This document shows, piece after piece, positions 2,912 to 60,722 of a stretch of DNA of 64,000 nucleotides. The stretch's first letter is position 1; every line of letters starts with the position of its first letter. The translations under genes and the position numbers were made by a program. The DNA is from Clostridia bacterium (lineage in GTDB: Bacteria; Bacillota; Clostridia; UMGS1840), in contig JAFUIN010000001.1 in the NCBI GenBank assembly GCA_017468465.1, positions 14,425 through 78,424 on the forward strand, in the 5' to 3' direction. The notes beneath the pieces are model-generated. The model saw only the letters and a list, made by a program, of their open reading frames with translations. It had not been told where the DNA came from and searched no databases.

Positions 2912-3730
2912 GTGAAAGAAATTATTACCTCTGCCAAAACCGTAGACGAAGCAATCGAAAAAGCAGTGGCAGAATTAGCAGTAGATAGAGATTTAATTGA
3001 ATTTGAAATTTTAAGCGCTCCCACCAACGGATTTTTAGGCCTGGGTGCAAAACCGGCAAGAATTTTAGCAAGATATGATGTGAAAAAACCGGAAGAAGTA
3101 AAAGAAGAACCCAAAAAAGTCGAAGCAAAAGCCCCCAAAGCAAAGGTGGAAAAGAACCCGGCAAAAGAAGTAAAGCAGCCTGAAACAAAGAAACCTACCA
3201 TCAATTATGAAGACGATGCTGATTTTGTTCCCAGTGAAAACGGTGTAAGCTTTGTGGAAGATTATGTGAAAAAACTGTTTGAATTAATGGGAATGGAAAT
3301 GACTGCAGAAGTTCGTCAGCAAGGCAGAATTATTTTTGTGAATATTGCGGGGGACGAAGCAGGCAGCATTATCGGAAAACACGGTGACACTTTGGATGCA
3401 ATTCAGCACATGCTGCAGCTTGCATTCAATAAAAAAGTAAAAGGCGGTGAAAAAATCCGTCTGGATACCGAAGACTATCGTATGAAACGTGAAAAAACCT
3501 TGACCGGTCTTGCAAAAAGCATTGCAAACCGTGTGATTAAATCACGTGGAAAATATGAATTGGAACCCATGAAAGCATATGAAAGAAGAATTATTCATTC
3601 TGCGCTTCAGAGCTATCCGATGATTACCACCTATTCTGTTGGTGTAGAGCCTCAGAGACGCTTGATTGTTGCATTTAAGCATAGAAATCAGCAAAATCAG
3701 GAAAATCAGGAAGCTGCTACAGAAGAATAA
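2912..3730 (+). CDS. jag: Jag/KhpB-type RNA-binding protein (Jag-N, KH and R3H domains)
   Basis: N-terminal TSAKTVDEAIEKAVAEL (Jag_N), a Lys/Glu-rich linker, then IIGKHGDTLDAIQ (KH) and ERRIIHSAL (R3H). Located downstream of yidC. Confidence 0.85.
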   Translation: MKEIITSAKTVDEAIEKAVAELAVDRDLIEFEILSAPTNGFLGLGAKPARILARYDVKKPEEVKEEPKKVEAKAPKAKVEKNPAKEVKQPETKKPTINYEDDADFVPSENGVSFVEDYVKKLFELMGMEMTAEVRQQGRIIFVNIAGDEAGSIIGKHGDTLDAIQHMLQLAFNKKVKGGEKIRLDTEDYRMKREKTLTGLAKSIANRVIKSRGKYELEPMKAYERRIIHSALQSYPMITTYSVGVEPQRRLIVAFKHRNQQNQENQEAATEE

Positions 3731-3830
3731 TCTGTGGATGAAGCCCACAGTCATTTGCTGTTTGTCGGATTGCACCAATCGCTACAACAAAAAAGGGACT
3801 GTCCTAAAAAAATGACAGTCCCTCACATAC

Positions 3831-3906
3831 GCTGGTGTAGCTCAGTCGGTAGAGCATCTCACTCGTAATGAGAAGGTCACGTGTTCAAGTCACGCCACCA
3901 GCTCCA
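3831..3906 (+). tRNA. tRNA-Thr (anticodon CGU), CCA encoded
   Basis: Hand-folded cloverleaf: 7-bp acceptor GCTGGTG/CACCAGC, D arm GCTC/GAGC, anticodon stem TCTCA/TGAGA with loop CTCGTAA, and T loop TTCAAGT. There is one A49-C65 mismatch and the discriminator is U. Confidence 0.93.
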
Positions 3907-3912
3907 AAAAAA

Positions 3913-3941
3913 ACGACAAGTTCGACTTGTCGTTTTTTTTT
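3913..3941 (+). terminator. Intrinsic terminator after tRNA-Thr
   Basis: ACGACAAGT-TCG-ACTTGTCGT hairpin followed by a 9-T run. Confidence 0.8.
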
Positions 3942-4077
3942 ATGAAACAAATTTTTCAGGATTTTTGAAATATACTTTGTGTGTAATTTGTTGCAATTTG
4001 AAATATATCGTGCTATAATGTTATAAGTTAATGAAAATTTATGATCTGTTACGGAAATAAACGAAGAGGAGTTCTAT

Positions 4078-5685
4078 TTAATCCTTTAGCAGCGCATAAC
4101 CGCTAAAGCTTGAGTATATTATGTTTCCATCCTCAAGATCAGCCGTAAAGGAAACCATGTATAATCCCACGTGTTCATTCACTCTGTAAACATCCAATTC
4201 GTGTTGTTCTGTGCCGTATTTTTGATGTAATTCTCTTGCAAGGTCATATAGATTGATGTTATACTGCTGACCGTTGTGATCAACTGTAAGAACCTCATCG
4301 TAGGCGTACACTTTGACCATTTGTTGATATTCTGTGATGTCAGCAGATGATTTTGTCTGGAAAAACCAGCCTTCATATCTGGATTCCTTTTCGCTGTCGG
4401 AAAAGCCGAATATTTCTGAAAAATTTTTTTCATCGTTTGGGATAAAGTCAGGCGTTTTTTTTGCATTATACTTCAAATAATTGTACGAGCTGATGATGGC
4501 TTTGGCATCTTCATCGTTGATGTTGTTGTTTGGAATCACAGCTCCATCGCTTATCATATTATTCTTCGTCAGGACATTTTTCAGGATAGCAGTCTGGCTG
4601 GCAACCGGCATGTCGATCACATTCAAAGGTGTAACGGTAACCAGCAATACAACCATTCCGGAGATCAGTGCAATCTTGTTTAAGTGCTTTGGCACAATGA
4701 TTGCTCCACCGATAAATAAGATGCTGATTGCAATTAGCACAAGAGAAATTGTTCTTGGTGTGGTGAGCCCGTATGCATTGATTCTTTCAAACACCGCAAG
4801 GGCTTGCATAATCAGCACGGGAATCAGAAAATAACCGCCATACTTTATAAAAAGCTTTGCAAGCTTTTCGGTATACTGCATCACGCTCATCACAAAGAAA
4901 ATGAAAAAGAGAGATGCAAAGGATGCAAACCAGTTAATTTCACCTACAGGCATATTCAGCGTGAATACGATTTTTGCAAGGTATATGAGCAAAATAGCGA
5001 TCAGAAGTATGTATAACGGCAATCCGGCATACAAAACAAAAATGCGGAATATTTTTGATTGTGATGCGGGAGTTTCCTTTTTTGGAATAAAGGAAAGAAA
5101 GATGTTGGGAAATCCTATCACCCATACAAAAAGGTTTACAAGTAAATATAGCTTATAGCTGTTATCCCAGGTGAATATCAGGGATTGAAAGGCTGCAATG
5201 CAGGTGGATAATCCACCGGAAAGCACCCCACATACCGCACCCGTAAAAATAAAAGAGGATACCAGCTTGGGAAATGCAACATCACGGTTTTCTCCTCGCA
5301 TCAGCGTTGAAAAGATAAAGCAGAGCAGCGCAACCATAATGCCGAAGTATGCCATAATGGTATACAGGGAGTCGTAGTTTTGTTTGATGAGTAAAAATCC
5401 TGCGATTGCAGTCAGTGCGCACAGGCTGTACTGTATCAGACTGTTTAGTTTATGGCTGATGTATTCCTGTATGGTTTTCAGGAGAACAGAAAACAACGCA
5501 ACCAAAGCATAGGTCATACACAAGGGAACGATGATTTCTTCCTTGCTTGATCCAAACAAAATTTCGTGGGATACAGTCAGATAACAGAGCACAGAACAGA
5601 CAAAGGCAATTAAATATCTTTGAATACCGTTTTTTACATTTGTGAAAAAGTTTTGAACATATTCTCGTACTTTCATGCTGAACAC
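4078..5685 (-). CDS. Hypothetical multi-pass membrane protein with a C-terminal soluble domain
   Basis: 535-aa ORF with about 10 or more hydrophobic segments and then a roughly 150-aa hydrophilic tail. I recognise no catalytic motif. A DUF4153-like family is a weak guess from memory. Confidence 0.7.
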   Translation of the reverse strand: MFSMKVREYVQNFFTNVKNGIQRYLIAFVCSVLCYLTVSHEILFGSSKEEIIVPLCMTYALVALFSVLLKTIQEYISHKLNSLIQYSLCALTAIAGFLLIKQNYDSLYTIMAYFGIMVALLCFIFSTLMRGENRDVAFPKLVSSFIFTGAVCGVLSGGLSTCIAAFQSLIFTWDNSYKLYLLVNLFVWVIGFPNIFLSFIPKKETPASQSKIFRIFVLYAGLPLYILLIAILLIYLAKIVFTLNMPVGEINWFASFASLFFIFFVMSVMQYTEKLAKLFIKYGGYFLIPVLIMQALAVFERINAYGLTTPRTISLVLIAISILFIGGAIIVPKHLNKIALISGMVVLLVTVTPLNVIDMPVASQTAILKNVLTKNNMISDGAVIPNNNINDEDAKAIISSYNYLKYNAKKTPDFIPNDEKNFSEIFGFSDSEKESRYEGWFFQTKSSADITEYQQMVKVYAYDEVLTVDHNGQQYNINLYDLARELHQKYGTEQHELDVYRVNEHVGLYMVSFTADLEDGNIIYSSFSGYALLKD

Positions 5686-51807: not shown

Positions 51808-51865
51808 AAAAAATGACATTATTTGCATTGCAAGTATTGTCATTTTTGTTTTTTTGTGATAGAAT
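51808..51865 (+). repeat. Terminator-promoter cassette, copy A
   Basis: A 14-bp-arm hairpin (51813-51843) plus a T-run. The -35-like TTGTCA lies in the 3' arm (51837-51842), followed by 17 nt and an extended -10 TGATAGAAT (51857-51865). 52/58 identical, ungapped, to 57064-57121. Confidence 0.8.
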
Positions 51866-51890
51866 AGATTTAACGAAAGTTAAATCTATT
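51863..51890. promoter_or_regulatory. Perfect 12-bp inverted repeat overlapping the -10/TSS (candidate operator)
   Basis: AATAGATTTAAC-GAAA-GTTAAATCTATT, with all 12 pairs complementary. This segment is absent from cassette copy B. Confidence 0.6.
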
Positions 51891-51892
51891 TG

Positions 51893-51971
51893 GCTAAATT
51901 CGCGTTCCGCGAGCTAAATTGAGCAAGCTCAGCTAAATTGCCTACGGCAGCTAAATGTGCTTCGCACGCTA
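51893..51971 (+). repeat. Tandem array of four GCTAAAT + short hairpin modules (unclassified leader element)
   Basis: GCTAAAT occurs at 51893, 51913, 51932 and 51950, with GCTA at 51968. The spacers are distinct palindromes: TCGCG-TTC-CGCGA, TGAGC-AA-GCTCA, TGCC-TAC-GGCA and GTGC-TTC-GCAC. Confidence 0.75.
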
Positions 51972-52025
51972 CAGTATGAAACTCAGATAAAAATAAATTT
52001 TTTCGATTATAGGGAGAAGAATGAA

Positions 52026-54410: not shown

Positions 54411-54439
54411 TTGACAATCGTTTACAGATATGGTATACT
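54411..54439 (+). promoter_or_regulatory. Sigma-A promoter of the T-box-controlled gene
   Basis: TTGACA (54411-54416), 17 nt, TATACT (54434-54439). Confidence 0.7.
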
Positions 54440-54445
54440 ATGCTC

Positions 54446-54737
54446 TAATGAAAGGCTGTGACGAAGAGGGCAGATTCAGGCGAACCTTTGAGAGAAGTGG
54501 CGGTTGGTGCGAGCCATAGGGGACAGAGTTTGTTTGTAGCTTCTGAGCCGGGAGGAAGAAAGTTTTCAAAAGAAATGAGTAGAACCTCTCCGTGATTGCT
54601 GCGTTAAGGCATAAGAGGTTGTTAGACCTTAAGAGTGGCGATAGAATTATCGCAATTTGAGTGGTACCGCGGGTGAATAATTGCTAAAACACTCGTCTCA
54701 AAGAATTTTACCGATGCTTTGAGGCGAGATTTTTTTT
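54446..54737 (+). promoter_or_regulatory. T-box riboswitch leader (tRNA-sensing transcription attenuator)
   Basis: Stem I has a K-turn (GGC-UGU-GA.../...GA-GCC, 54454-54549), an AGAGA bulge (54491-54495) and distal loop GGUUGGUGCGA. Stem II has AGUAGAA. The T-box sequence AAUUUGAGUGGUACCGCGGGUG lies at 54654-54675. The terminator is CTCGTCTCAAAG/CTTTGAGGCGAG plus U8 (54692-54737). Confidence 0.85.
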
Positions 54738-54763
54738 GCCTCAAAAAAGGAGGATTTTTTAAT

Positions 54764-57055
54764 ATGGAAAACTCAATGGACATCAGCTTAAAAATTAAGG
54801 AGATGGCATGGCGTATTCGCGAGCTTCGGGAAATTGAAGGCTTTACCCCCGAAGATATGGCGGAAAAGACAGGTGTATCGTTGGAAGACTATCGGAAAAT
54901 GGAAAATGGAGAAGCAGACCTGAACTTTGCTTTTATTTACCGTTGTGCAGAAGTGTTCCGGGTAAACGTTACCGATATTATCGAAGGTACCAGCCCCAAT
55001 CTTCGCTCTTACACAGTGACTCGTGCAGGAGCTGGTCAGCAGATTGCAAAGGCTCATGGCATGGTATATTACAATATGGCACATGCTTTCCGTAACAGAA
55101 TCGCAGAGCCCTTGTATGTTGTAAGCACCTATGATGAAGCAGCACAAAATAAAGACATTGAACTGACCACTCACGAAGGTCAGGAATGTGATATTGTGAT
55201 TGAAGGCAATCTGATGGTGCAAATCGGGGAACATAAAGAAGTGCTTGGCCCCGGCGACAGCATTTACTATAACAGTAGCACTCCCCACGGTATGATTGCT
55301 GTAAATGGAAAAGACTGTAAATTCTACGCGTTTGTGCTTCGTGCCGATGCCGAAGTTGCTGAAAAAGTGGCAGAAGTGGTTCCTACAGAGCAGATTATCG
55401 GCTCCATTCATCGGGATACCAAAGACAGAATTTATCATAAATTTATCGACGTGGTGGAAGACGAACAGGGAACACCTACCTCTATCACCTTCAAAAATAC
55501 AGAAAAGTTCAATTTTGCATTCGATTTGGTGGATGAGCTGTCCAGAAAAGAGCCGGACAAGCTTTGTATGCTCCACATTTCCAAAAACAAAACCGAACGT
55601 CGCTTCACCTTTACCGATATGCGTAAAAAATCCAGCCAGTGTGCTAACTATTTTGCATCCTTGGGGATTAAAAAGGGCGACCGCGTTATGCTCATTTTAA
55701 GACGTCACTATCAGTTCTGGATTGCTATGCTGGGGCTGAATAAGCTGGGTGCTGTTGCCATTCCGGCGGTTGACCAGCTGCACGAGCATGATTTGGAATA
55801 TCGTTTCCAGTCTGCAGGGGTTAGTGCAATTGTTTGTACTGCAGAAGGCGAAGTTTCAAACTATGTTGATATGGCGGCGAAAAATTGCCCCACATTGCAG
55901 CATAAAATGCTGGTTGGCGGCAAAAAAGAGGGCTGGAGAAGCTTTAACGAAGAATATAAACGCTTCAGCACACATTTTGAACGTACCGAAGATTCTCCCT
56001 GCGGTGATGATACCATGCTGATGTATTTCACCTCCGGAACCTCCGGCTATCCGAAAATTGCTACCCATAACTATAAATATCCTTTGGGTCATTTTCATAC
56101 TGCTAAATATTGGCACAATGTAGACCCTGACGGATTGCACTTTACCATTTCCGATACCGGTTGGGCAAAGGCAATGTGGGGCAAATTATACGGTCAGTGG
56201 CTGTGCGAAGCGGCAACCTTTGTATACGATTTTGACCGATTTGATGCAGCAGAAATTCTGCCCATGTTCCAGAAGCATCACATTACCACCTTCTGTGCAC
56301 CGCCTACTATGTTGCGCATGATGATAAAACAGGACATTTCCAAATACGACTTTTCTTCTGTTCGTCATATGACTACCGCTGGAGAAGCACTGAATCCGGA
56401 AGTGTACCGTCAATTTGAAAAAGCAACTGGCTTACAGATTAAAGAAGGTTTCGGTCAGACCGAAAGCACCATGATTATCGGGAACCTGGTTGGTAAGCCT
56501 CATAAAATCGGTGCAATGGGAAAACCGGCACCGATTTACAAGGTAGAGCTTCATAATGCAGACGGTGAACAGGTAAAAACCAGTGAATCCGGCGAAATTG
56601 TTATCAATGTTAAAGACGGCGCACCTTGCGGTCTCTTTACCGGATATTACGGTGACGAAGAAAAAACCAAAGAGGTATGGCACGATGGCTATTATCACAC
56701 CGGTGACGTTGCCTGGTGCGATGAAGACGGATATTATTGGTATGTTGGCCGTGTGGACAATGTTATTAAATCTTCCGGATACAGAATCGGACCCTTTGAA
56801 ATTGAAAGCGTTATTATGGAGCTTCCATATGTTTTGGAATGCGGTGTTTCTGCTGTTCCCGATGAAGTAAGAGGGCAGATTGTAAAAGCCAGCATCGTAT
56901 TGGTTAACGGCACGGAAGGCACAGATGAGCTGAAAAAAGAAATCCAGAATTATGTTAAGGAAAAAACAGCTCCCTATAAGTACCCCAGAATTGTTGAATT
57001 CAAGGAATCGTTGCCCAAAACCGTAAGCGGAAAAATTCAGAGAAACAAATTGTAA
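54764..57055 (+). CDS. Fusion protein: XRE-type HTH + cupin + AMP-forming acyl-CoA synthetase (medium/short-chain ACS-like)
   Basis: N-terminal HTH (IRELREIEGFTPEDMAEKTGVSLEDYRKMENG), cupin (GDSIYYNSSTPHGM), then adenylation motifs YFTSGTSGYPK, EGFGQTES, YYHTGD, GRVDNVIKSSGYRIGPFEIE and PKTVSGKIQR. ATG 54764 lies 9 nt after AAAGGAGGA. Confidence 0.85.
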   Translation: MENSMDISLKIKEMAWRIRELREIEGFTPEDMAEKTGVSLEDYRKMENGEADLNFAFIYRCAEVFRVNVTDIIEGTSPNLRSYTVTRAGAGQQIAKAHGMVYYNMAHAFRNRIAEPLYVVSTYDEAAQNKDIELTTHEGQECDIVIEGNLMVQIGEHKEVLGPGDSIYYNSSTPHGMIAVNGKDCKFYAFVLRADAEVAEKVAEVVPTEQIIGSIHRDTKDRIYHKFIDVVEDEQGTPTSITFKNTEKFNFAFDLVDELSRKEPDKLCMLHISKNKTERRFTFTDMRKKSSQCANYFASLGIKKGDRVMLILRRHYQFWIAMLGLNKLGAVAIPAVDQLHEHDLEYRFQSAGVSAIVCTAEGEVSNYVDMAAKNCPTLQHKMLVGGKKEGWRSFNEEYKRFSTHFERTEDSPCGDDTMLMYFTSGTSGYPKIATHNYKYPLGHFHTAKYWHNVDPDGLHFTISDTGWAKAMWGKLYGQWLCEAATFVYDFDRFDAAEILPMFQKHHITTFCAPPTMLRMMIKQDISKYDFSSVRHMTTAGEALNPEVYRQFEKATGLQIKEGFGQTESTMIIGNLVGKPHKIGAMGKPAPIYKVELHNADGEQVKTSESGEIVINVKDGAPCGLFTGYYGDEEKTKEVWHDGYYHTGDVAWCDEDGYYWYVGRVDNVIKSSGYRIGPFEIESVIMELPYVLECGVSAVPDEVRGQIVKASIVLVNGTEGTDELKKEIQNYVKEKTAPYKYPRIVEFKESLPKTVSGKIQRNKL

Positions 57056-57063
57056 AAAATATA

Positions 57064-57121
57064 AAAAAATGACAATATTTGCTTTGCAAGTATTGTCATT
57101 TTTAATTTTATGTGATATAAT
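57064..57121 (+). repeat. Terminator-promoter cassette, copy B
   Basis: Hairpin ATGACAATATTTGC-TTT-GCAAGTATTGTCAT (57069-57099) plus a T-run. TTGTCA (57093-57098), 17 nt, then TGATATAAT (57113-57121). It terminates the ACS gene and promotes the MFS gene. Confidence 0.8.
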
Positions 57122-57172
57122 GTATTTGGTAATTTTTACAGCCAAAATATCTAACAGCAAAGGAAGAAAAAA

Positions 57173-58495
57173 ATGAACACACAAACGACAAAAAGTTGGC
57201 GCACAAACAAATGGATGAGAGCAGCAATTCCGGCGCTTTTACTGCATTGCAGTATCGGAACCGTTTACTGCTGGTCCATTTTCAGCCAGGAAATTGCAGA
57301 TTATATCGGCTTTTCAAAGGGTGCTACCGAGTGGGCATTCAGCCTTGCGATTTTCTTTTTGGGGATGTCGGCAGCCTTTTTGGGAAATATTGTAGAAAAA
57401 GATATCCATAAATCGTCTTTGATTGCTACCATCTGCTTTGCAATCGGCATGGCGGGAACCGGTGGATTTATCTACTATGGCGGTCTTCATCAGGGAAGTG
57501 TGGTTTCTTTAATCGGCATTTATCTTTGCTATGGCGTCATTATGGGCATCGGCTTGGGAACCGGCTATCTTTCTCCCGTCAAAACGCTGATGATCTGGTT
57601 TAGCGACAAAAAAGGTCTTGCAACCGGCCTTGCAGTTGCAGGCTTTGGTGCAGCAAAAGCGATTGCCAGCCCCATTATGCAGTCAATGCTTTCTTCCATG
57701 GGGGAAAGCGGAATCTACAAAATGTTTTTGATTTTGGCTTGTGTATATTTTGTCATGATGTTTATCGGGCATCTTTTGCTGAAAAAGCCGGACGATTGGC
57801 ATGAGCCTACGGGAGCAGAAAAGAAAGACAGCATCATGACCGTCTTAAAATCCAGACCGATTAGCAACTATGTTGGGATCTGGCTGATGTTCTACATCAA
57901 CATTACATGCGGGCTGGCCCTTTTGTCGCAAGAAAAAATGATTGTAAAATGTATCGGCTTAGCAAGCTTTGTAGGGGTTATTTCTACGGTGTCTGCAATC
58001 TTTAATGCTGTGGGACGTCTTGGCTTTTCTGCTTGGGGCGACAAGATGAAAGACAGAAACACCATCTATAAAATTATTTTTGCTTTCTCTATTTTGTTTA
58101 CTGCCATTGTCATTGTAACAAATGGTATTGCAAACGGCGCAAACAGCGGCTTTTTAGCAGCGTTAGTGCTGATTCTCATTATGTTTGTCAATGCAGGCTA
58201 TGGCGGCGGATTTTCCAATGTTCCCACCTTGCTGTCTGACCATTACGGCATGGGAAGCATCAGCGCAATTCACGGAATCACCCTTTCTGCATGGGCATTT
58301 GCAGGGCTTAGCGGAAATCAGCTTGCTACCTGGATTGTAAATAATTTTGGAAATCCCGTTACACAAAATGGAGTTACGGTGAATCCCCAGGGATACCAGA
58401 TGGTGCTTTATGTTACCATTGCACTTTACATCGTTGCAATGCTTCTGAGTATGTTTTTGGTAAAAAGCAAAGCAGAAGTAAAGCAGAAGGCTTAA
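57173..58495 (+). CDS. MFS transporter (oxalate/formate antiporter-like, OFA family)
   Basis: About 12 TM segments over 440 aa, with N-terminus RWMRAAIPALLLHCSIGTVYCWSIF typical of OFA-type MFS carboxylate transporters (from memory). Confidence 0.75.
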   Translation: MNTQTTKSWRTNKWMRAAIPALLLHCSIGTVYCWSIFSQEIADYIGFSKGATEWAFSLAIFFLGMSAAFLGNIVEKDIHKSSLIATICFAIGMAGTGGFIYYGGLHQGSVVSLIGIYLCYGVIMGIGLGTGYLSPVKTLMIWFSDKKGLATGLAVAGFGAAKAIASPIMQSMLSSMGESGIYKMFLILACVYFVMMFIGHLLLKKPDDWHEPTGAEKKDSIMTVLKSRPISNYVGIWLMFYINITCGLALLSQEKMIVKCIGLASFVGVISTVSAIFNAVGRLGFSAWGDKMKDRNTIYKIIFAFSILFTAIVIVTNGIANGANSGFLAALVLILIMFVNAGYGGGFSNVPTLLSDHYGMGSISAIHGITLSAWAFAGLSGNQLATWIVNNFGNPVTQNGVTVNPQGYQMVLYVTIALYIVAMLLSMFLVKSKAEVKQKA

Positions 58496-58601: not shown

Positions 58602-60722
58602 ATGAATCATTTTATTTTCAATAAGGAAAGAATGGATTTCCGCTACAGTTCCGGCACTACCATTTATAATGAAAAACTTTGGGACGGAAGATTGGTGAGT
58701 ATCAATTACTGCGCAACCGGCATGCCTCCCCATGACCACGACTGCGTGATGGAGGCTCCTGTATGTGCTTTCGACTTAGCTGTTGACGGCAAGGACGCCA
58801 CCTTCGGCTGGGAATTTGAAAACTGGGAAACATCGGAGGAAACATCCGGCAGAGCTTATGCAGAACTGACCTTAAAAAATCATAGATTGGCATTACAGAT
58901 GCGCGTGTTGACCTTCTGTGGAGAAAACGGATTTTTCTCCAGACATATTTATCTGAAAAATCTTTCCGATAAACCTCAGTCCATTACCAAAATTTCACCT
59001 CTTTGCGGTACCTTGTGGGAAAAGAAACACGATGTGAAAGATTCGCTGGGTGACTATGATAAATCCTTGGTTTATGTAGGTTGTTTCAAAGATAATCACT
59101 GGGGTGCAGAAGGCAATTTTGATTGGTATAACGTGCCCTATAATGCATGGGTTTCCTTTGGCGGTGAAAACGGAAGAAGCGGTCATGGCCATCCCTTTGC
59201 GATTGCAAAAAATGACCTGTTGGGCGGTTATTTTGTGTGTCAGATGGAATGGGGTGCAAACTGGAAATTCGCATTCAAAAACGATTTTAGAAACTTTGCT
59301 GCAACCGATAACAACGGCTTAAAACCCTATATCCGTGTAAAATTCAATCTGTCTCCCGAAGCACCTGCCCCCATGCGTGTTATGGAAGCAGGAGAAGAAG
59401 TGGAAGCACCCCGCATCCATTTTGGCTTTGGCTACAACGATTTTGACGATACCATTTATGCACTGCATACTTATCAGAGAAAATATCTGTTGCACAGACC
59501 CAATCGTGGTTATGATATGATTTCCTATGACCATTGGGGCTATATGGAACACGAAATGACCGAAGAAAAACTGCTGATCGAAGTGGAACGTGCCGCAAAA
59601 TTAGGCGCAGAAATCTTCGTGATTGATGCCGGCTGGTACGGCAGAGCTGACAAAAACTTCTGGTTAAGTGTTGGCGATTGGCATATGTGTCATCTGGAAA
59701 ATGACTTACATCCCGTTGTAAAACGAGCAAAAGAACTGGGTATGAAATTCGGTCTCTGGGTAGAACCGGAAGCTTGGGGGATTGACAGTTTAGCTCGTGA
59801 AGAACATCCCGGATGGTTGCTTGAGCGTTATGGTCACGGCATTGAAAGAGTAATTGATTTTTCTCATCCTGAAGCAGAAAAGTATATTGAAGATGTGCTT
59901 TGCTCCTTAGTAGAAAAATATGATCTGGATATGATTCGTCTGGACTACAATAATGGTTACATCGGCGAAGGAGGCTTCAATGAAAACGGTGACTATTTAG
60001 AAAACAGTCATTGGCGTAATGTAGAAGCAATTCACAGAATTTTTGACAATATTCATAAAAAATATCCCGATTTACATTTGGAAAACTGTGCTTCCGGTGG
60101 CGGCAGAACGGACCTGGGTATGATGACCAGATTCTCCAAAACGCAGTTCTCCGACTGGTACAAATTCCCCCGTGTTGCACGCACCTTCAACGGAATGTCT
60201 ATGTGCTTACCGCCGGAATGCCTGATGTTTATTTATGGCTCTGCTATGAGCGCATCTGCTTACGGTAATGCAGAATCACAGCTGCAGATGACCGTTCAGG
60301 GAATTCCGCAGTTGTCCGGTGTTGCCCGCTATGAAGAAGAAGTAAATCCCGAGCTGGAAGCGATGATTCAGAAATATCTGAAGCTGTTCAAAGAATATAT
60401 CAGACCCATTCAGAATAAAGTAAAACTCTATCATCATACCCCTGTTGTGGGTGGATTCTCCGGCAGAGGCTGGGTGGTAACCGAAGCAATGCTTCCGGAC
60501 GGCTCCAAAGGATATGTGAATATCAACCGTCTGCCCAATGCAACAGAAGATGTATGGCAGTTAAAGCTGAAGGGTTGCGATTGCACCAAAGATTACATTT
60601 TGACTGACGTTGCTACCGGCAAGCAGTTTGCTGTCAGCGGTTACAGCTTATATACAGAAGGAATGCCCGTTGCATTGGACGGTGCGCTGACCTCTCGTAT
60701 GTTTTTAGTAGAACTGAAATAA
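58602..60722 (+). CDS. Glycoside hydrolase family 36 (alpha-galactosidase-like)
   Basis: FVIDAGWYG, KFGLWVEPE, IRLDYN and ENCASGGGRTD motifs of GH36 (nucleophile and acid/base regions). Confidence 0.8.
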   Translation: MNHFIFNKERMDFRYSSGTTIYNEKLWDGRLVSINYCATGMPPHDHDCVMEAPVCAFDLAVDGKDATFGWEFENWETSEETSGRAYAELTLKNHRLALQMRVLTFCGENGFFSRHIYLKNLSDKPQSITKISPLCGTLWEKKHDVKDSLGDYDKSLVYVGCFKDNHWGAEGNFDWYNVPYNAWVSFGGENGRSGHGHPFAIAKNDLLGGYFVCQMEWGANWKFAFKNDFRNFAATDNNGLKPYIRVKFNLSPEAPAPMRVMEAGEEVEAPRIHFGFGYNDFDDTIYALHTYQRKYLLHRPNRGYDMISYDHWGYMEHEMTEEKLLIEVERAAKLGAEIFVIDAGWYGRADKNFWLSVGDWHMCHLENDLHPVVKRAKELGMKFGLWVEPEAWGIDSLAREEHPGWLLERYGHGIERVIDFSHPEAEKYIEDVLCSLVEKYDLDMIRLDYNNGYIGEGGFNENGDYLENSHWRNVEAIHRIFDNIHKKYPDLHLENCASGGGRTDLGMMTRFSKTQFSDWYKFPRVARTFNGMSMCLPPECLMFIYGSAMSASAYGNAESQLQMTVQGIPQLSGVARYEEEVNPELEAMIQKYLKLFKEYIRPIQNKVKLYHHTPVVGGFSGRGWVVTEAMLPDGSKGYVNINRLPNATEDVWQLKLKGCDCTKDYILTDVATGKQFAVSGYSLYTEGMPVALDGALTSRMFLVELK

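Follow-up and report, generated by a model that had tools for sequence, protein, structure and literature searches.

A conserved HTH-cupin-acyl-CoA ligase fusion behind a valine T-box in Clostridia: a candidate enzyme of branched-acid salvage

The gene considered here lies in a 64,000-nucleotide stretch of a Clostridia genome (contig JAFUIN010000001.1; hereafter ‘the window’) and encodes a 763-aa protein in which an XRE-type helix-turn-helix (HTH) domain and a cupin barrel precede a complete acyl-CoA synthetase. This three-part architecture, proposed in the initial annotation, is borne out by Pfam domain search and by motifs; it is real, conserved and under purifying selection. Upstream of the gene lies a T-box leader whose specifier codon, which the initial annotation had not given, is one for valine, and it is this codon that allows a physiological role to be assigned to the enzyme. 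As a whole, the gene is best explained, at slightly better than an even chance, as a valine-T-box-induced isobutyrate CoA ligase for valine synthesis that carries a ligand- or metal-binding partner module. Architecture, conservation, T-box and specifier are shown directly, as are the gene context in relatives and the existence of split and fused forms; we infer which acid is used, which way the pathway runs and what the N-terminal module does. The features are collected in Table 1.

Table 1. Features of the fusion gene, its leader and its downstream flank, in window positions
Feature	Position	Strand	Basis
Sigma-70-type promoter of leader: TTGACA, 17 nt, extended -10 TG-n-TATACT	54411..54439	+	Promoter scan
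T-box leader: Stem I, Stem III, antiterminator/terminator	54449..54737	+	Rfam RF00230; T-box motif in relatives
Specifier codon GUA (valine), then conserved purine G at 54539	54536..54538	+	Leader alignment
T-box sequence AGUGGUACCGCG	54660..54671	+	UGGU pairs with tRNA 3' end ACCA (discriminator A)
Leader intrinsic terminator: 12-bp stem CUCGUCUCAAAG/CUUUGAGGCGAG, then U8	54692..54737	+	Folding
Ribosome-binding site AAAGGAGG	54746..54753	+	Read directly from the sequence
CDS of 763-aa fusion protein, stop codon included	54764..57055	+	ORF list, Pfam, homologues
XRE-type five-helix HTH-like domain, residues 10-75	54791..54988	+	Pfam, AF2, net charge -7
Cupin barrel, residues 121-195	55124..55348	+	Pfam Cupin_2; invariant His137, Glu141, Asp143, Asp165, His175
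Flexible linker, residues 196-216	55349..55411	+	AF2 low pLDDT; low conservation, indels
ANL N-terminal domain, residues 217-660	55412..56743	+	Pfam AMP-binding; PDB 3ETC alignment; A3, A5, Trp450, Ala468
ANL C-terminal domain, residues 661-763	56744..57052	+	Pfam AMP-binding_C; motif A8, catalytic Lys757 of A10
Gene terminator hairpin: A-tract, 18-bp stem, U-tract	57065..57103	+	Folding, hairpin/promoter scan
MFS monocarboxylate-transporter homolog	57173..58495	+	Best NCBIfam match SfMCT, 221 bits, below cut-off 320

The listed open reading frame (54719..57055, forward strand) opens with TTG; the ATG at 54764, 10 nt past the ribosome-binding site, gives the 763-aa product. Pfam places HTH_3 at residues 18-71 (E 1e-7; 32.3 bits against a cut-off of 23), with HTH_19 and HTH_31 also above threshold in this region; Cupin_2 at residues 131-189 (E 4e-12); AMP-binding (PF00501) at residues 260-629 (E 1e-58); and AMP-binding_C (PF13193) at residues 679-757 (E 3e-20). 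The translation contains the motifs YFTSGTSGYPK (A3), GFGQTES (A5), GRVDNVIKSSGYRIGPFEIE and PKTVSGKIQR (A10), and the core motifs of the ligase (A3, A5, GRVDNVIKSSGYRIGPFE and PKTVSGK with Lys757) are kept across 58 family members. Conservation in the protein is lowest in the linker of about 22 residues, where the family alignment shows indels; its AF2 pLDDT falls below 50 at residues 195-216, in a model with an overall pTM of 0.69.

The initial annotation had allowed that such an architecture might be an annotation artefact, for example a frameshifted gene pair in relatives, and a survey of homologues answers this: the fusion is full length in all 80 of the related genome loci retained from at least 585 matching stretches. 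The identical domain set, in 750-770 aa, recurs in at least 120 clusters at 80-93% identity and in at least 120 further clusters at 42-58% identity; the fusion is present in Oscillospirales, Lachnospiraceae, Christensenellales and Solobacterium. The identity of the N-terminal module tracks that of the enzyme domain among relatives, which argues against a front end decaying as a pseudogene; this reading, like that of an assembly or frameshift artefact, is ruled out by the unbroken frame in the window and by products of 750-770 aa in hundreds of independent assemblies, and its probability is negligible. No characterisation of the fusion protein, and nothing specific on the fusion or on the genetics of the pathway proposed below, was found in the literature searched.

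T-box control of the gene, also claimed in the initial annotation, holds. RF00230 matches positions 54449-54703 with 85.7 bits (E 2.8e-19). The gathering score is higher, at 93, and the default Rfam scan therefore passed over the leader; the leaders of orthologs score from 83 to 112 bits. A T-box motif lies 5' of the gene in 79 of 79 related loci. The GTA triplet and its purine, directly 5' of the closing-stem CTTC, are invariant in all 78 aligned leaders while the flanks vary; the Solobacterium leader has GTC, likewise a valine codon; and over all leaders counted the specifier is GTA in 78 and ATC in 39. The leader promoter matches 11 of 12 consensus positions, plus the TG extension, and its -35 and -10 are the sole conserved blocks 5' of the leaders in orthologs. 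The leader terminator folds at -18.1 kcal/mol (z -3.98); its 5' arm shares sequence with the 3' arm of the antiterminator, whose pairing is backed by the Rfam alignment, and the two structures are thus mutually exclusive. The T-boxes of valS, ilv-leu and brnQ are built from the same elements: a codon and purine in the specifier loop, a UGGN bulge, and terminator and antiterminator helices that compete. The window clade differs from the known branched-chain amino-acid T-boxes in its specifier loop, where the canonical S-turn (AGUA/GAA) is absent and replaced by AGGG ... UUU; this sequence varies in orthologs, and Solobacterium retains GAA. It differs also in the gene controlled, here a fatty-acid CoA ligase; no report of such a ligase under T-box control was found in the literature searched.

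The closest PDB relative of the synthetase part is MacsMa, the medium-chain acyl-CoA synthetase of Methanosarcina acetivorans (3ETC; E 2.5e-186 to 8e-186, 623 bits over 515 residues), and the best NCBIfam model is MbcS, named for the methylbutyryl-CoA synthetase of Staphylococcus aureus, at 440 bits against an equivalog cut-off of 850; the ligase is, by sequence, a relative of MbcS and not an equivalog. It shares with both the ANL fold and motifs and the pocket tryptophan: Trp450, invariant across the family, aligns with Trp259 of MacsMa (the Trp of ‘KYWQNV’), an alternative tryptophan whose role in the Macs-type acyl pocket has been described (PMC10455477). MacsMa prefers 2-methylbutyrate (PMC10455477), and MbcS selects 2-methylbutyrate and isobutyrate, not isovalerate or acetate (PMC10026030); these substrates match the isoleucine and valine specifiers seen here. 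At pocket residue 468 the Val-type paralogs have Ala, and the Ile-type paralogs have Gly, as does MacsMa. Because of the T-box specifiers, the gene context and this Ala/Gly difference, a preference for isobutyrate or 2-methylbutyrate is proposed: the product most probably joins CoA to a small alpha-branched acid at the expense of ATP, with isobutyrate the likeliest substrate. Unlike the fusion, MacsMa and MbcS lack the N-terminal HTH-cupin module and, as far as described, the T-box.

Gene context enters through more distant relatives. In 38 loci of the L027-L080 group a further fused paralog sits directly upstream, its T-box specifier being AUC (isoleucine), and the Val- and Ile-type paralogs are followed by genes for a 2-oxoacid:ferredoxin oxidoreductase (OFOR) and a branched-chain aminotransferase: among the 38 loci with sufficient downstream DNA, the OFOR alpha, beta and gamma genes occur in 36 and a class IV aminotransferase gene in 31. 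Valine and isoleucine T-boxes in this context point to a salvage of branched acids into amino acids by reductive carboxylation. The conversion of isobutyryl-CoA to 2-oxoisovalerate and then to valine is a classical rumen and gut route, and for the rumen it is accepted that 2-methylbutyrate is reductively carboxylated to give isoleucine (PMC2812497). That is, uncharged tRNA-Val would pair with the GUA specifier and allow transcription past the leader terminator, which would otherwise not occur; the ligase would spend ATP to activate isobutyrate to isobutyryl-CoA; OFOR would reductively carboxylate this to 2-oxoisovalerate; and transamination would yield valine. The sister paralog with the AUC T-box would serve the same route from 2-methylbutyrate to isoleucine. 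The evidence for the valine route rests on these more distant relatives, since OFOR or aminotransferase genes lie nowhere in the window and near none of the closest relatives (L001-L026; 0 of 19 loci). None of the gene's neighbours in the window is conserved beside its orthologs in the 80 loci. The MFS homolog downstream, a possible branched-acid importer by sequence, has its own promoter and adjoins the gene in 0 of 80 loci, and its association with the gene is weak.

A second perspective on the ligase supposes that in the window clade isobutyryl-CoA mainly primes iso-even branched-chain fatty acids, the acid being salvaged when valine, the normal source of primer, runs short. This is the role of MbcS in S. 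aureus (PMC10026030, PMC11167679), whose model is the best NCBIfam match, and it would agree with the separation of the gene from OFOR and aminotransferase genes in the window and in L001-L026; it is compatible with any reading of the N-terminal module. Nevertheless, orthologs 75-78% identical to the window protein, and governed by the same kind of T-box, run in the same direction as OFOR genes in 36 of the 38 distant loci and as aminotransferase genes in 31; the partner genes may simply lie elsewhere in the genome; and a T-box signals a shortage of an amino acid for translation. We consider the supply of primers, which sets MbcS apart from the amino-acid synthesis proposed here, an unlikely main role.

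The N-terminal module is not confined to the fusion. Of the six informative free-standing relatives, four precede an AMP-binding gene at a distance of -4 to +21 nt, in one case a ligase 50% identical to that of the window. The module has long been a dedicated partner of ligases of this subfamily, and other anaerobes encode it separately, just upstream of the ligase and translationally coupled to it. The invariance of the cupin residues holds across 45 free-standing and 58 fused sequences. In the AF2 model the first domain has a five-helix XRE fold (helices 7-25, 29-36, 40-47, 55-65 and 69-74; pLDDT 87-98). The domain is acidic: the net charge of the HTH is -7 here and averages -5.0 +/- 1.5 over 124 members, where the corresponding values are -4 for the helical domain of HppE, +3 for the regulator 1y9q and -2 for the XRE regulator 6jq1; that of helices 2-3 alone is about -4. 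The recognition helix (helix 3) carries a near-invariant Glu41-Glu42, and positions 40 and 45, the equivalents of base contacts, vary even among orthologs. We take Glu41 and Glu42 to stand where 434 repressor has its DNA-contacting Gln29 and Ser30, from a profile alignment together with textbook knowledge.

The initial annotation had likened the protein to BirA, in which the acyl-adenylate is a corepressor. By homology there is no such likeness: the catalytic fold is that of the ANL enzymes, unrelated to biotin protein ligase, and the N-terminal part is not a winged helix but XRE plus cupin, the latter with no BirA counterpart and set apart from the ligase by the disordered linker. None of the observations points to an acyl-adenylate corepressor or to dimerisation driven by the adenylate. 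The concept is nevertheless shared, as a DNA-binding-type N-terminal domain on an adenylate-forming enzyme recalls BirA, PutA and NadR. In this perspective the protein would be a bifunctional trigger enzyme whose HTH dimer binds an operator under the influence of the cupin ligand or of the acyl-AMP/acyl-CoA state, adding a second layer of sensing to the T-box; the cis-acting T-box signal could so be passed in trans to unlinked oxidoreductase or transporter genes. The threshold matches to three HTH families and the confidently predicted XRE fold speak for this, as do an alignment with the PuuR model from end to end of the module (residues 15-187; weak, at 26 bits against a cut-off of 211), the similarity of the HTH to BzdR-type regulators (weak, E 3e-7 to 6e-6), the best overall superposition, which is with 1y9q, an ‘HTH_3 regulator’ (TMq 0.66), and the purifying selection on the module. 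XRE-cupin factors (PuuR; PauR, PsdR and ErfA of Pseudomonas) have the same two-domain layout of about 185 aa and the same Pfam families, are associated with an adjacent metabolic gene, and typically act as local repressors of such genes (PMC7901475). They are separate, low-copy regulators, whereas the module is fused or translationally coupled to an enzyme. Some loci, split and fused (L081, L085 and L094 among them), have no T-box at all, so that some other regulator is needed there; and where the pathway partners are unlinked, as in the window clade, a trans-acting factor would be useful. BzdR regulates an anaerobic benzoate-CoA ligase operon in response to the product, benzoyl-CoA, and thus also ties an XRE-type domain to an acid-CoA ligase pathway; its sensor, however, is shikimate-kinase-like rather than a cupin, and it is a separate protein with known operators.

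The search for an operator covered local promoters near the gene, its orthologs and its paralogs. Palindromes enumerated in 116 orthologous and paralogous promoter regions, against shuffled controls, revealed none that recurred; only A/T-rich low-complexity sequence and T-box stems did. A scan for inverted repeats in the split loci, the divergent L094 intergenic region and the window promoter gave no shared motif either. A 10-bp palindrome, ATTGTACAAT, overlaps the -10 in L085 and L086, which agrees with DNA binding. The targets suggested in the initial annotation fell away: the 12-bp inverted repeat at 51863 has no second copy in the window and coincides in part with the -10 of another operon, and the ‘cassette hairpin’ at 57065-57103 is a strong terminator (-20.3 kcal/mol, z -7.8), with one near-copy in the window at 51814, none in other loci except for a partial counterpart after the closest ortholog (L001), and a 3' arm that doubles as the -35 of the next promoter. 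The acidic HTH, its glutamates and variable contact positions, and the want of a shared palindrome in these searches speak against a repressor; the 1:1 stoichiometry with the enzyme and the 4-nt gene overlap in split loci better fit a protein partner. Binding of DNA by the HTH is doubtful, and the trigger enzyme stays a tentative alternative.

The helical domain may also have a purely structural role, in a catalytic, HppE-like metal-dependent cupin that performs an extra step on the acid, the acyl-CoA or the keto acid. HppE, HEPD and MPnS, Fe(II) cupin enzymes of phosphonate metabolism, combine an XRE-like helical domain, which does not bind DNA, with a cupin. HppE gives the top Foldseek matches of the module (E 7e-14) and a profile match across both domains (E 2.5e-12), near the best; the matches to HppE and MPnS are as good as that to 1y9q, a putative regulator; the helical domain is likewise acidic; and His137, Glu141 and His175 have the His-x3-Glu...His spacing of the HppE iron ligands His138, Glu142 and His180. 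PuuR carries the same His/Glu/His pattern, and for this reason the metal triad was rejected as a means of telling enzyme from regulator. Against catalysis, identity to these enzymes is only about 20%, and superposition on HppE reaches a TM-score of only about 0.5, the domains being oriented differently; phosphonate genes are absent nearby, the neighbours being genes for the ligase, OFOR and aminotransferase; HppE chemistry calls for an oxidant, whereas the module occurs in strict gut anaerobes; and the proposed pathway has no need of another step. A catalytic module is thus quite improbable.

We therefore favour, at a little better than even, a ligand- or metal-sensing partner module over a repressor, which is given clearly less weight. 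The module would bind a small molecule or a metal and serve the ligase as regulator or partner, rather than being a classical operator-binding repressor, because of the acidic HTH, the acidic or variable recognition helix, the disordered linker, the coupled free-standing relatives and the lack of a conserved palindrome in the promoters searched. It could, for example, sense a common metabolite at the His-Glu-His site: only 2 of 75 cupin positions separate Val-type from Ile-type paralogs, which suggests a shared ligand. A cupin that distinguishes valine from isoleucine as end product is disfavoured by the same count. Some observations count the other way. The HTH_3 threshold is passed, and the alignment with a true repressor, PuuR, runs end to end, though weakly; acidic charge is an indirect indicator, the XRE regulator 6jq1 itself being negative; and operons with the regulator first and the enzyme second are common.

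Isobutyrate and 2-methylbutyrate are required by many anaerobes of rumen and gut, which have long been held to carboxylate them to valine and isoleucine; to our knowledge, the activating enzymes and their regulation are poorly defined in Clostridia. One tentative account, which we would not rate as probable, is that a one-component XRE-cupin sensor was absorbed by the enzyme whose separate partner it had been, giving widespread ‘sensor-ligases’ of gut and rumen Firmicutes, in which a metabolite bound by the cupin gates either the ligase or DNA binding; the His-Glu-His site would then bind a pathway metabolite such as a metal-chelated 2-oxoacid product. If so, the activation of an acid, costly in ATP, would require a metabolic go-signal as well as amino-acid need, the latter read by the T-box from tRNA-Val or tRNA-Ile; each paralog's substrate would be labelled by its specifier codon; and the genetic basis would be revealed of a decades-old route of reductive carboxylation to valine and isoleucine. 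The arrangement of valine and isoleucine T-boxes on paralogous ligases, followed by oxidoreductase and aminotransferase genes, offers a testable gene set in which RNA switches predict substrates, and it would extend T-box control to a fatty-acid CoA ligase. The module, kept in hundreds of species whether fused or translationally coupled to the ligase, would be either a new enzyme-tethered allosteric sensor or a rare hybrid of enzyme and transcription factor; both outcomes would be informative about the evolution of XRE-cupin proteins, and the system is of practical relevance to ruminant nutrition and to gut cross-feeding that involves branched short-chain fatty acids.

The fusion of an XRE-type helix-turn-helix (HTH), a cupin and an ANL-superfamily acyl-CoA synthetase in one product, as proposed in the initial annotation, is borne out by a Pfam domain search (Table), and all four ANL motifs quoted there are found in the translation of 54764-57055. 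The reading frame (+ strand, 54719..57055, listed with a TTG start) is uninterrupted; the ATG at 54764, 10 nt 3' of the ribosome-binding site AAAGGAGG, gives the 763-aa product. The same domains recur in at least 120 protein clusters (80-93% identity, 751-765 aa) and, when a 42%-identical member of the family was the query, in at least 120 additional clusters, nearly all of 750-770 aa, with Lachnospiraceae, Ruminococcaceae, Solobacterium and Acutalibacteraceae among the source names. With one genome per species scanned, at least 585 stretches matched; the 80 best, which were kept, are full length throughout (75-96% identity) and derive without exception from MAGs of gut or rumen Clostridia. 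The full-length architecture in the clusters and in 80/80 kept loci rules out an artefact.

Table. Features of the window (nucleotide positions) and of the fusion protein (residues)
Feature	Position	Strand	Details
tRNA gene	3831-3903		66.8 bits; sole other Rfam match in window
Inverted repeat AATAGATTTAAC-GAAA-GTTAAATCTATT	51863-51890		perfect 12-bp; overlaps -10 and start site
Near-consensus promoter of leader	54411-54439	+	
T-box sequence AGUGGUACCGCG	54660-54671	+	
Leader terminator	54692-54737	+	12-bp stem and U8; -18.1 kcal/mol, z -4.0
MFS transporter, directly downstream	57173-58495		most similar to bacterial monocarboxylate (L-lactate) transporter SfMCT; 221 bits, under cut-off
HTH_3	residues 18-71		Pfam, E 1e-7, over threshold
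Cupin_2	residues 131-189		Pfam, E 4e-12
AMP-binding	residues 260-629		Pfam, E 1e-58
AMP-binding_C	residues 679-757		Pfam, E 3e-20

The T-box control that had been claimed for the gene is confirmed by an E-value-threshold scan, which places RF00230 at 54449-54703 (85.7 bits, E 2.8e-19), slightly short of the gathering score of 93; a default Rfam scan of the window reports the tRNA alone. The low score is explained by replacement of the canonical AGUA/GAA S-turn in the window's T-box clade. A T-box motif stands 5' of the gene in 79/79 related loci. GTA-purine, directly 5' of the closing stem on the 3' side of the specifier loop, is invariant in 78/78 aligned leaders while the bases around it differ (TTTGTAG, CGGTAG, ATGTAG, TTGTAA); this makes GUA (54536-54538), a valine codon, the specifier. 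The 5' arm of the terminator is also part of the antiterminator. By eye, its 3' arm TTTGAGGC could also pair with GCCTCAAA just 5' of the ribosome-binding site, a possible extra hairpin (54719-54745) 3' of the leader U-tract.

Among solved structures MacsMa is the nearest (3ETC; 515 residues aligned at E 2.5e-186) and prefers 2-methylbutyrate (PMC10455477); the top NCBIfam model, with a score under the equivalog cut-off, is MbcS, active on 2-methylbutyrate and isobutyrate, not on isovalerate or acetate (PMC10026030). The MbcS range agrees with the specifiers of the fused ligases: a second paralog upstream carries ATC (isoleucine) in 39 cases, a Solobacterium fusion GTC (valine), another distant pair ATC, and no fused ligase was found with a leucine specifier. 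The tryptophan of the Macs pocket is kept as Trp450. Paralogs with valine and with isoleucine specifiers (Val type and Ile type) are cleanly separated by six ANL positions only, two of them in the pocket segment GWAKAMWG; at residue 468 the Val type has Ala, the Ile type and MacsMa Gly. Kinship with MacsMa and MbcS, the specifiers, Trp450 and Ala468 thus point to isobutyrate as the probable substrate of the window enzyme.

As AMP-forming ligation is effectively irreversible and amino-acid shortage triggers a T-box, the operon should run from acid to amino acid: the ligase would convert the acid to acyl-CoA, reductive carboxylation would yield the 2-oxoacid, and transamination the amino acid. 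Such a route by reductive carboxylation has long been proposed for rumen organisms (PMC2812497). Around the 75-78% identical orthologs (L027-L080) a gene order recurs: the second fused paralog (~755 aa, upstream, 38 loci); a ~350-nt gap holding the T-box leader of the Val-type ortholog; that ortholog; a CbiA/ParA-like P-loop protein and then a gap of ferredoxin-subunit size; the alpha (POR_N+PFOR_II), beta (TPP_enzyme_C) and gamma (POR) subunits of a 2-oxoacid:ferredoxin oxidoreductase (36 of the 38 loci with sufficient sequence); a class IV (branched-chain) aminotransferase (31 loci); and often a LeuA-like gene.

In one such operon (L034, 12739-12980) a third T-box (112 bits, specifier CTC, leucine) lies downstream of the aminotransferase and precedes the LeuA-like (HMGL-like and LeuA_dimer) gene. 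The P-loop protein (~220 aa), between ligase and oxidoreductase genes, is kept in 50 loci (e.g. L061, 8295-8957), occurs also in a locus where ligase and module are separate genes (L092, 707-1378), and could be an Fe-S maturation factor. In a Lachnospiraceae MAG (L094, 4371-9268) two fused paralogs stand in tandem, 17 nt apart and without a T-box; 318 nt of intergenic DNA separate them from a divergently transcribed operon of P-loop, ferredoxin, oxidoreductase and LeuA-like genes. This locus regulates the same set of genes in another way.

In the clade of the window (L001-L026) neither oxidoreductase nor aminotransferase genes adjoin the ligase gene (0/19 loci; none in the window): the pathway partners must lie elsewhere, or the acyl-CoA may instead prime fatty-acid synthesis, the role described for MbcS. 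The window neighbors (a 137-aa cupin, a class II aldolase-like protein, a YegS-type lipid kinase, the MFS transporter and a glycosidase) are not conserved beside the gene in other loci, none of the five. A strong terminator and then a promoter of its own precede the MFS gene, which is not syntenic in relatives; by its similarity to SfMCT its product is a plausible short-chain acid importer. Upstream of the gene in the closest relative (L001; fusion proteins 96% identical) is an ORF of 706 aa (3446-5566), equal in length to the window glycosidase (58602-60722), which is downstream. The glycosidase is matched in one fetched locus only; if that locus is L001, there has been local rearrangement despite near-identical coding sequence.

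AlphaFold2 confidently models the N-terminal module (residues 1-200, pLDDT 93) as a five-helix XRE domain followed by a cupin barrel; residues 195-216 of the full-length model (pLDDT 86, pTM 0.69) are disordered, and the module is predicted to be tethered to the ligase, not packed. Identity to orthologs is ~0.70 for the HTH, ~0.75 for the cupin and 0.79 for the ANL N-domain, lowest in the linker; the pace at which the module evolves is only slightly above that of the enzyme. A search with residues 1-250 against 1.84 billion representatives returned the fusion family, then free-standing ~185-aa proteins at 30-42% identity sharing the motifs HxGQEF(D/N)Y and GDSIYFDSxxPH. Of six informative free-standing relatives, four are encoded just ahead of an AMP-binding gene in the same orientation, at a distance of -4 to +21 nt; the ligase from one of these loci is 50% identical to that of the window, and one split locus also holds P-loop and ferredoxin genes. 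No T-box was found at split loci with an adjoining ligase.

Whether this module binds DNA can be argued both ways. Local repression of neighboring metabolic genes is known of XRE-cupin proteins (PMC7901475), and a classical repressor would suit an HTH that passes Pfam thresholds and resembles those of BzdR-type regulators, in a module that aligns end to end (weakly) with the PuuR model and has as its top global superposition 1y9q, an uncharacterised 'HTH_3 regulator'; some loci, too, are without a T-box. But the HTH is acidic (net charge -7 in the window, -5.0 +/- 1.5 in 124 family members, mean -5.5 in free-standing relatives), near the HppE helical domain (-4) and unlike 1y9q (+3). Helix 3 (S-x-E-E-Y-x-x-C/Y) carries conserved Glu41 and Glu42 (the latter nearly invariant in the Val type) and varies at 40 and 45 even between orthologs; by alignment, we take these four residues to correspond to those contacting DNA in the 434 repressor. 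No recurrent palindrome was found near 116 promoters, and no common motif in split and divergent loci.

The non-DNA-binding enzymes HppE and MPnS, moreover, rank level with 1y9q in profile and fold searches (profile E 2.5e-12, 3.4e-12 and 8e-13, respectively; Foldseek against HppE, E 7e-14), and the invariant His137, Glu141 and His175 have the spacing of the HppE ligands; that the cupin is itself catalytic is a minor alternative. Overlapping genes and 1:1 fusion better suit a protein partner. Only 2/75 cupin positions separate Val from Ile type, so that any ligand is probably common to both paralogs, not the specific acid or amino acid. On balance a sensor or partner role seems somewhat likelier than that of a classical repressor.

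The fusion protein is not a homolog of BirA, to which the initial annotation compared it, though it might work like a trigger enzyme. Of the DNA targets proposed for it, the inverted repeat at 51863 is real, 12 bp and the sole copy in the window, but nothing links it to the fusion protein; it sits on the promoter of the 137-aa cupin/aldolase/lipid-kinase genes, for which it could act as operator or form a 5' stem-loop. The cassette hairpin at 57065-57103 is the gene's own terminator (-20.3 kcal/mol), with a near-identical terminator-plus-promoter module at 51809-51870; L001 has a related hairpin, other loci none. The two ~65-nt modules (51809-51870 and 57065-57125; ~92% identical) flank a 5.2-kb segment carrying the T-box gene. 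Each consists of an A-tract, a hairpin (13-bp arms, TGACAaTATTTGC/GCAAGTATTGTCA) and a T-run; TTGTCA in the 3' arm is the -35 of a promoter with an extended -10. The window has these two only, and 90 other loci none. In the 137-aa cupin gene the 5' UTR (51880-51975) carries four tandem AGCTAAAT(T/G) units with a mini-hairpin of 3-4 bp after each (cgcg-ttc-cgcg, gagc-aa-gctc, gcc-tac-ggc, gtgc-ttc-gcac), which could be sites for an RNA-binding protein.

The enzyme adds a member to the Macs/MbcS group; its leader is a T-box. No description was found, in the full-text literature searched, of a fatty-acid CoA ligase under T-box control, of paired Val and Ile paralogs beside oxidoreductase and aminotransferase genes, or of a conserved coupling, or fusion, of this ligase with an XRE-cupin module. 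The module occurs in both arrangements, split or fused, and is therefore a long-standing partner of this ligase subfamily.
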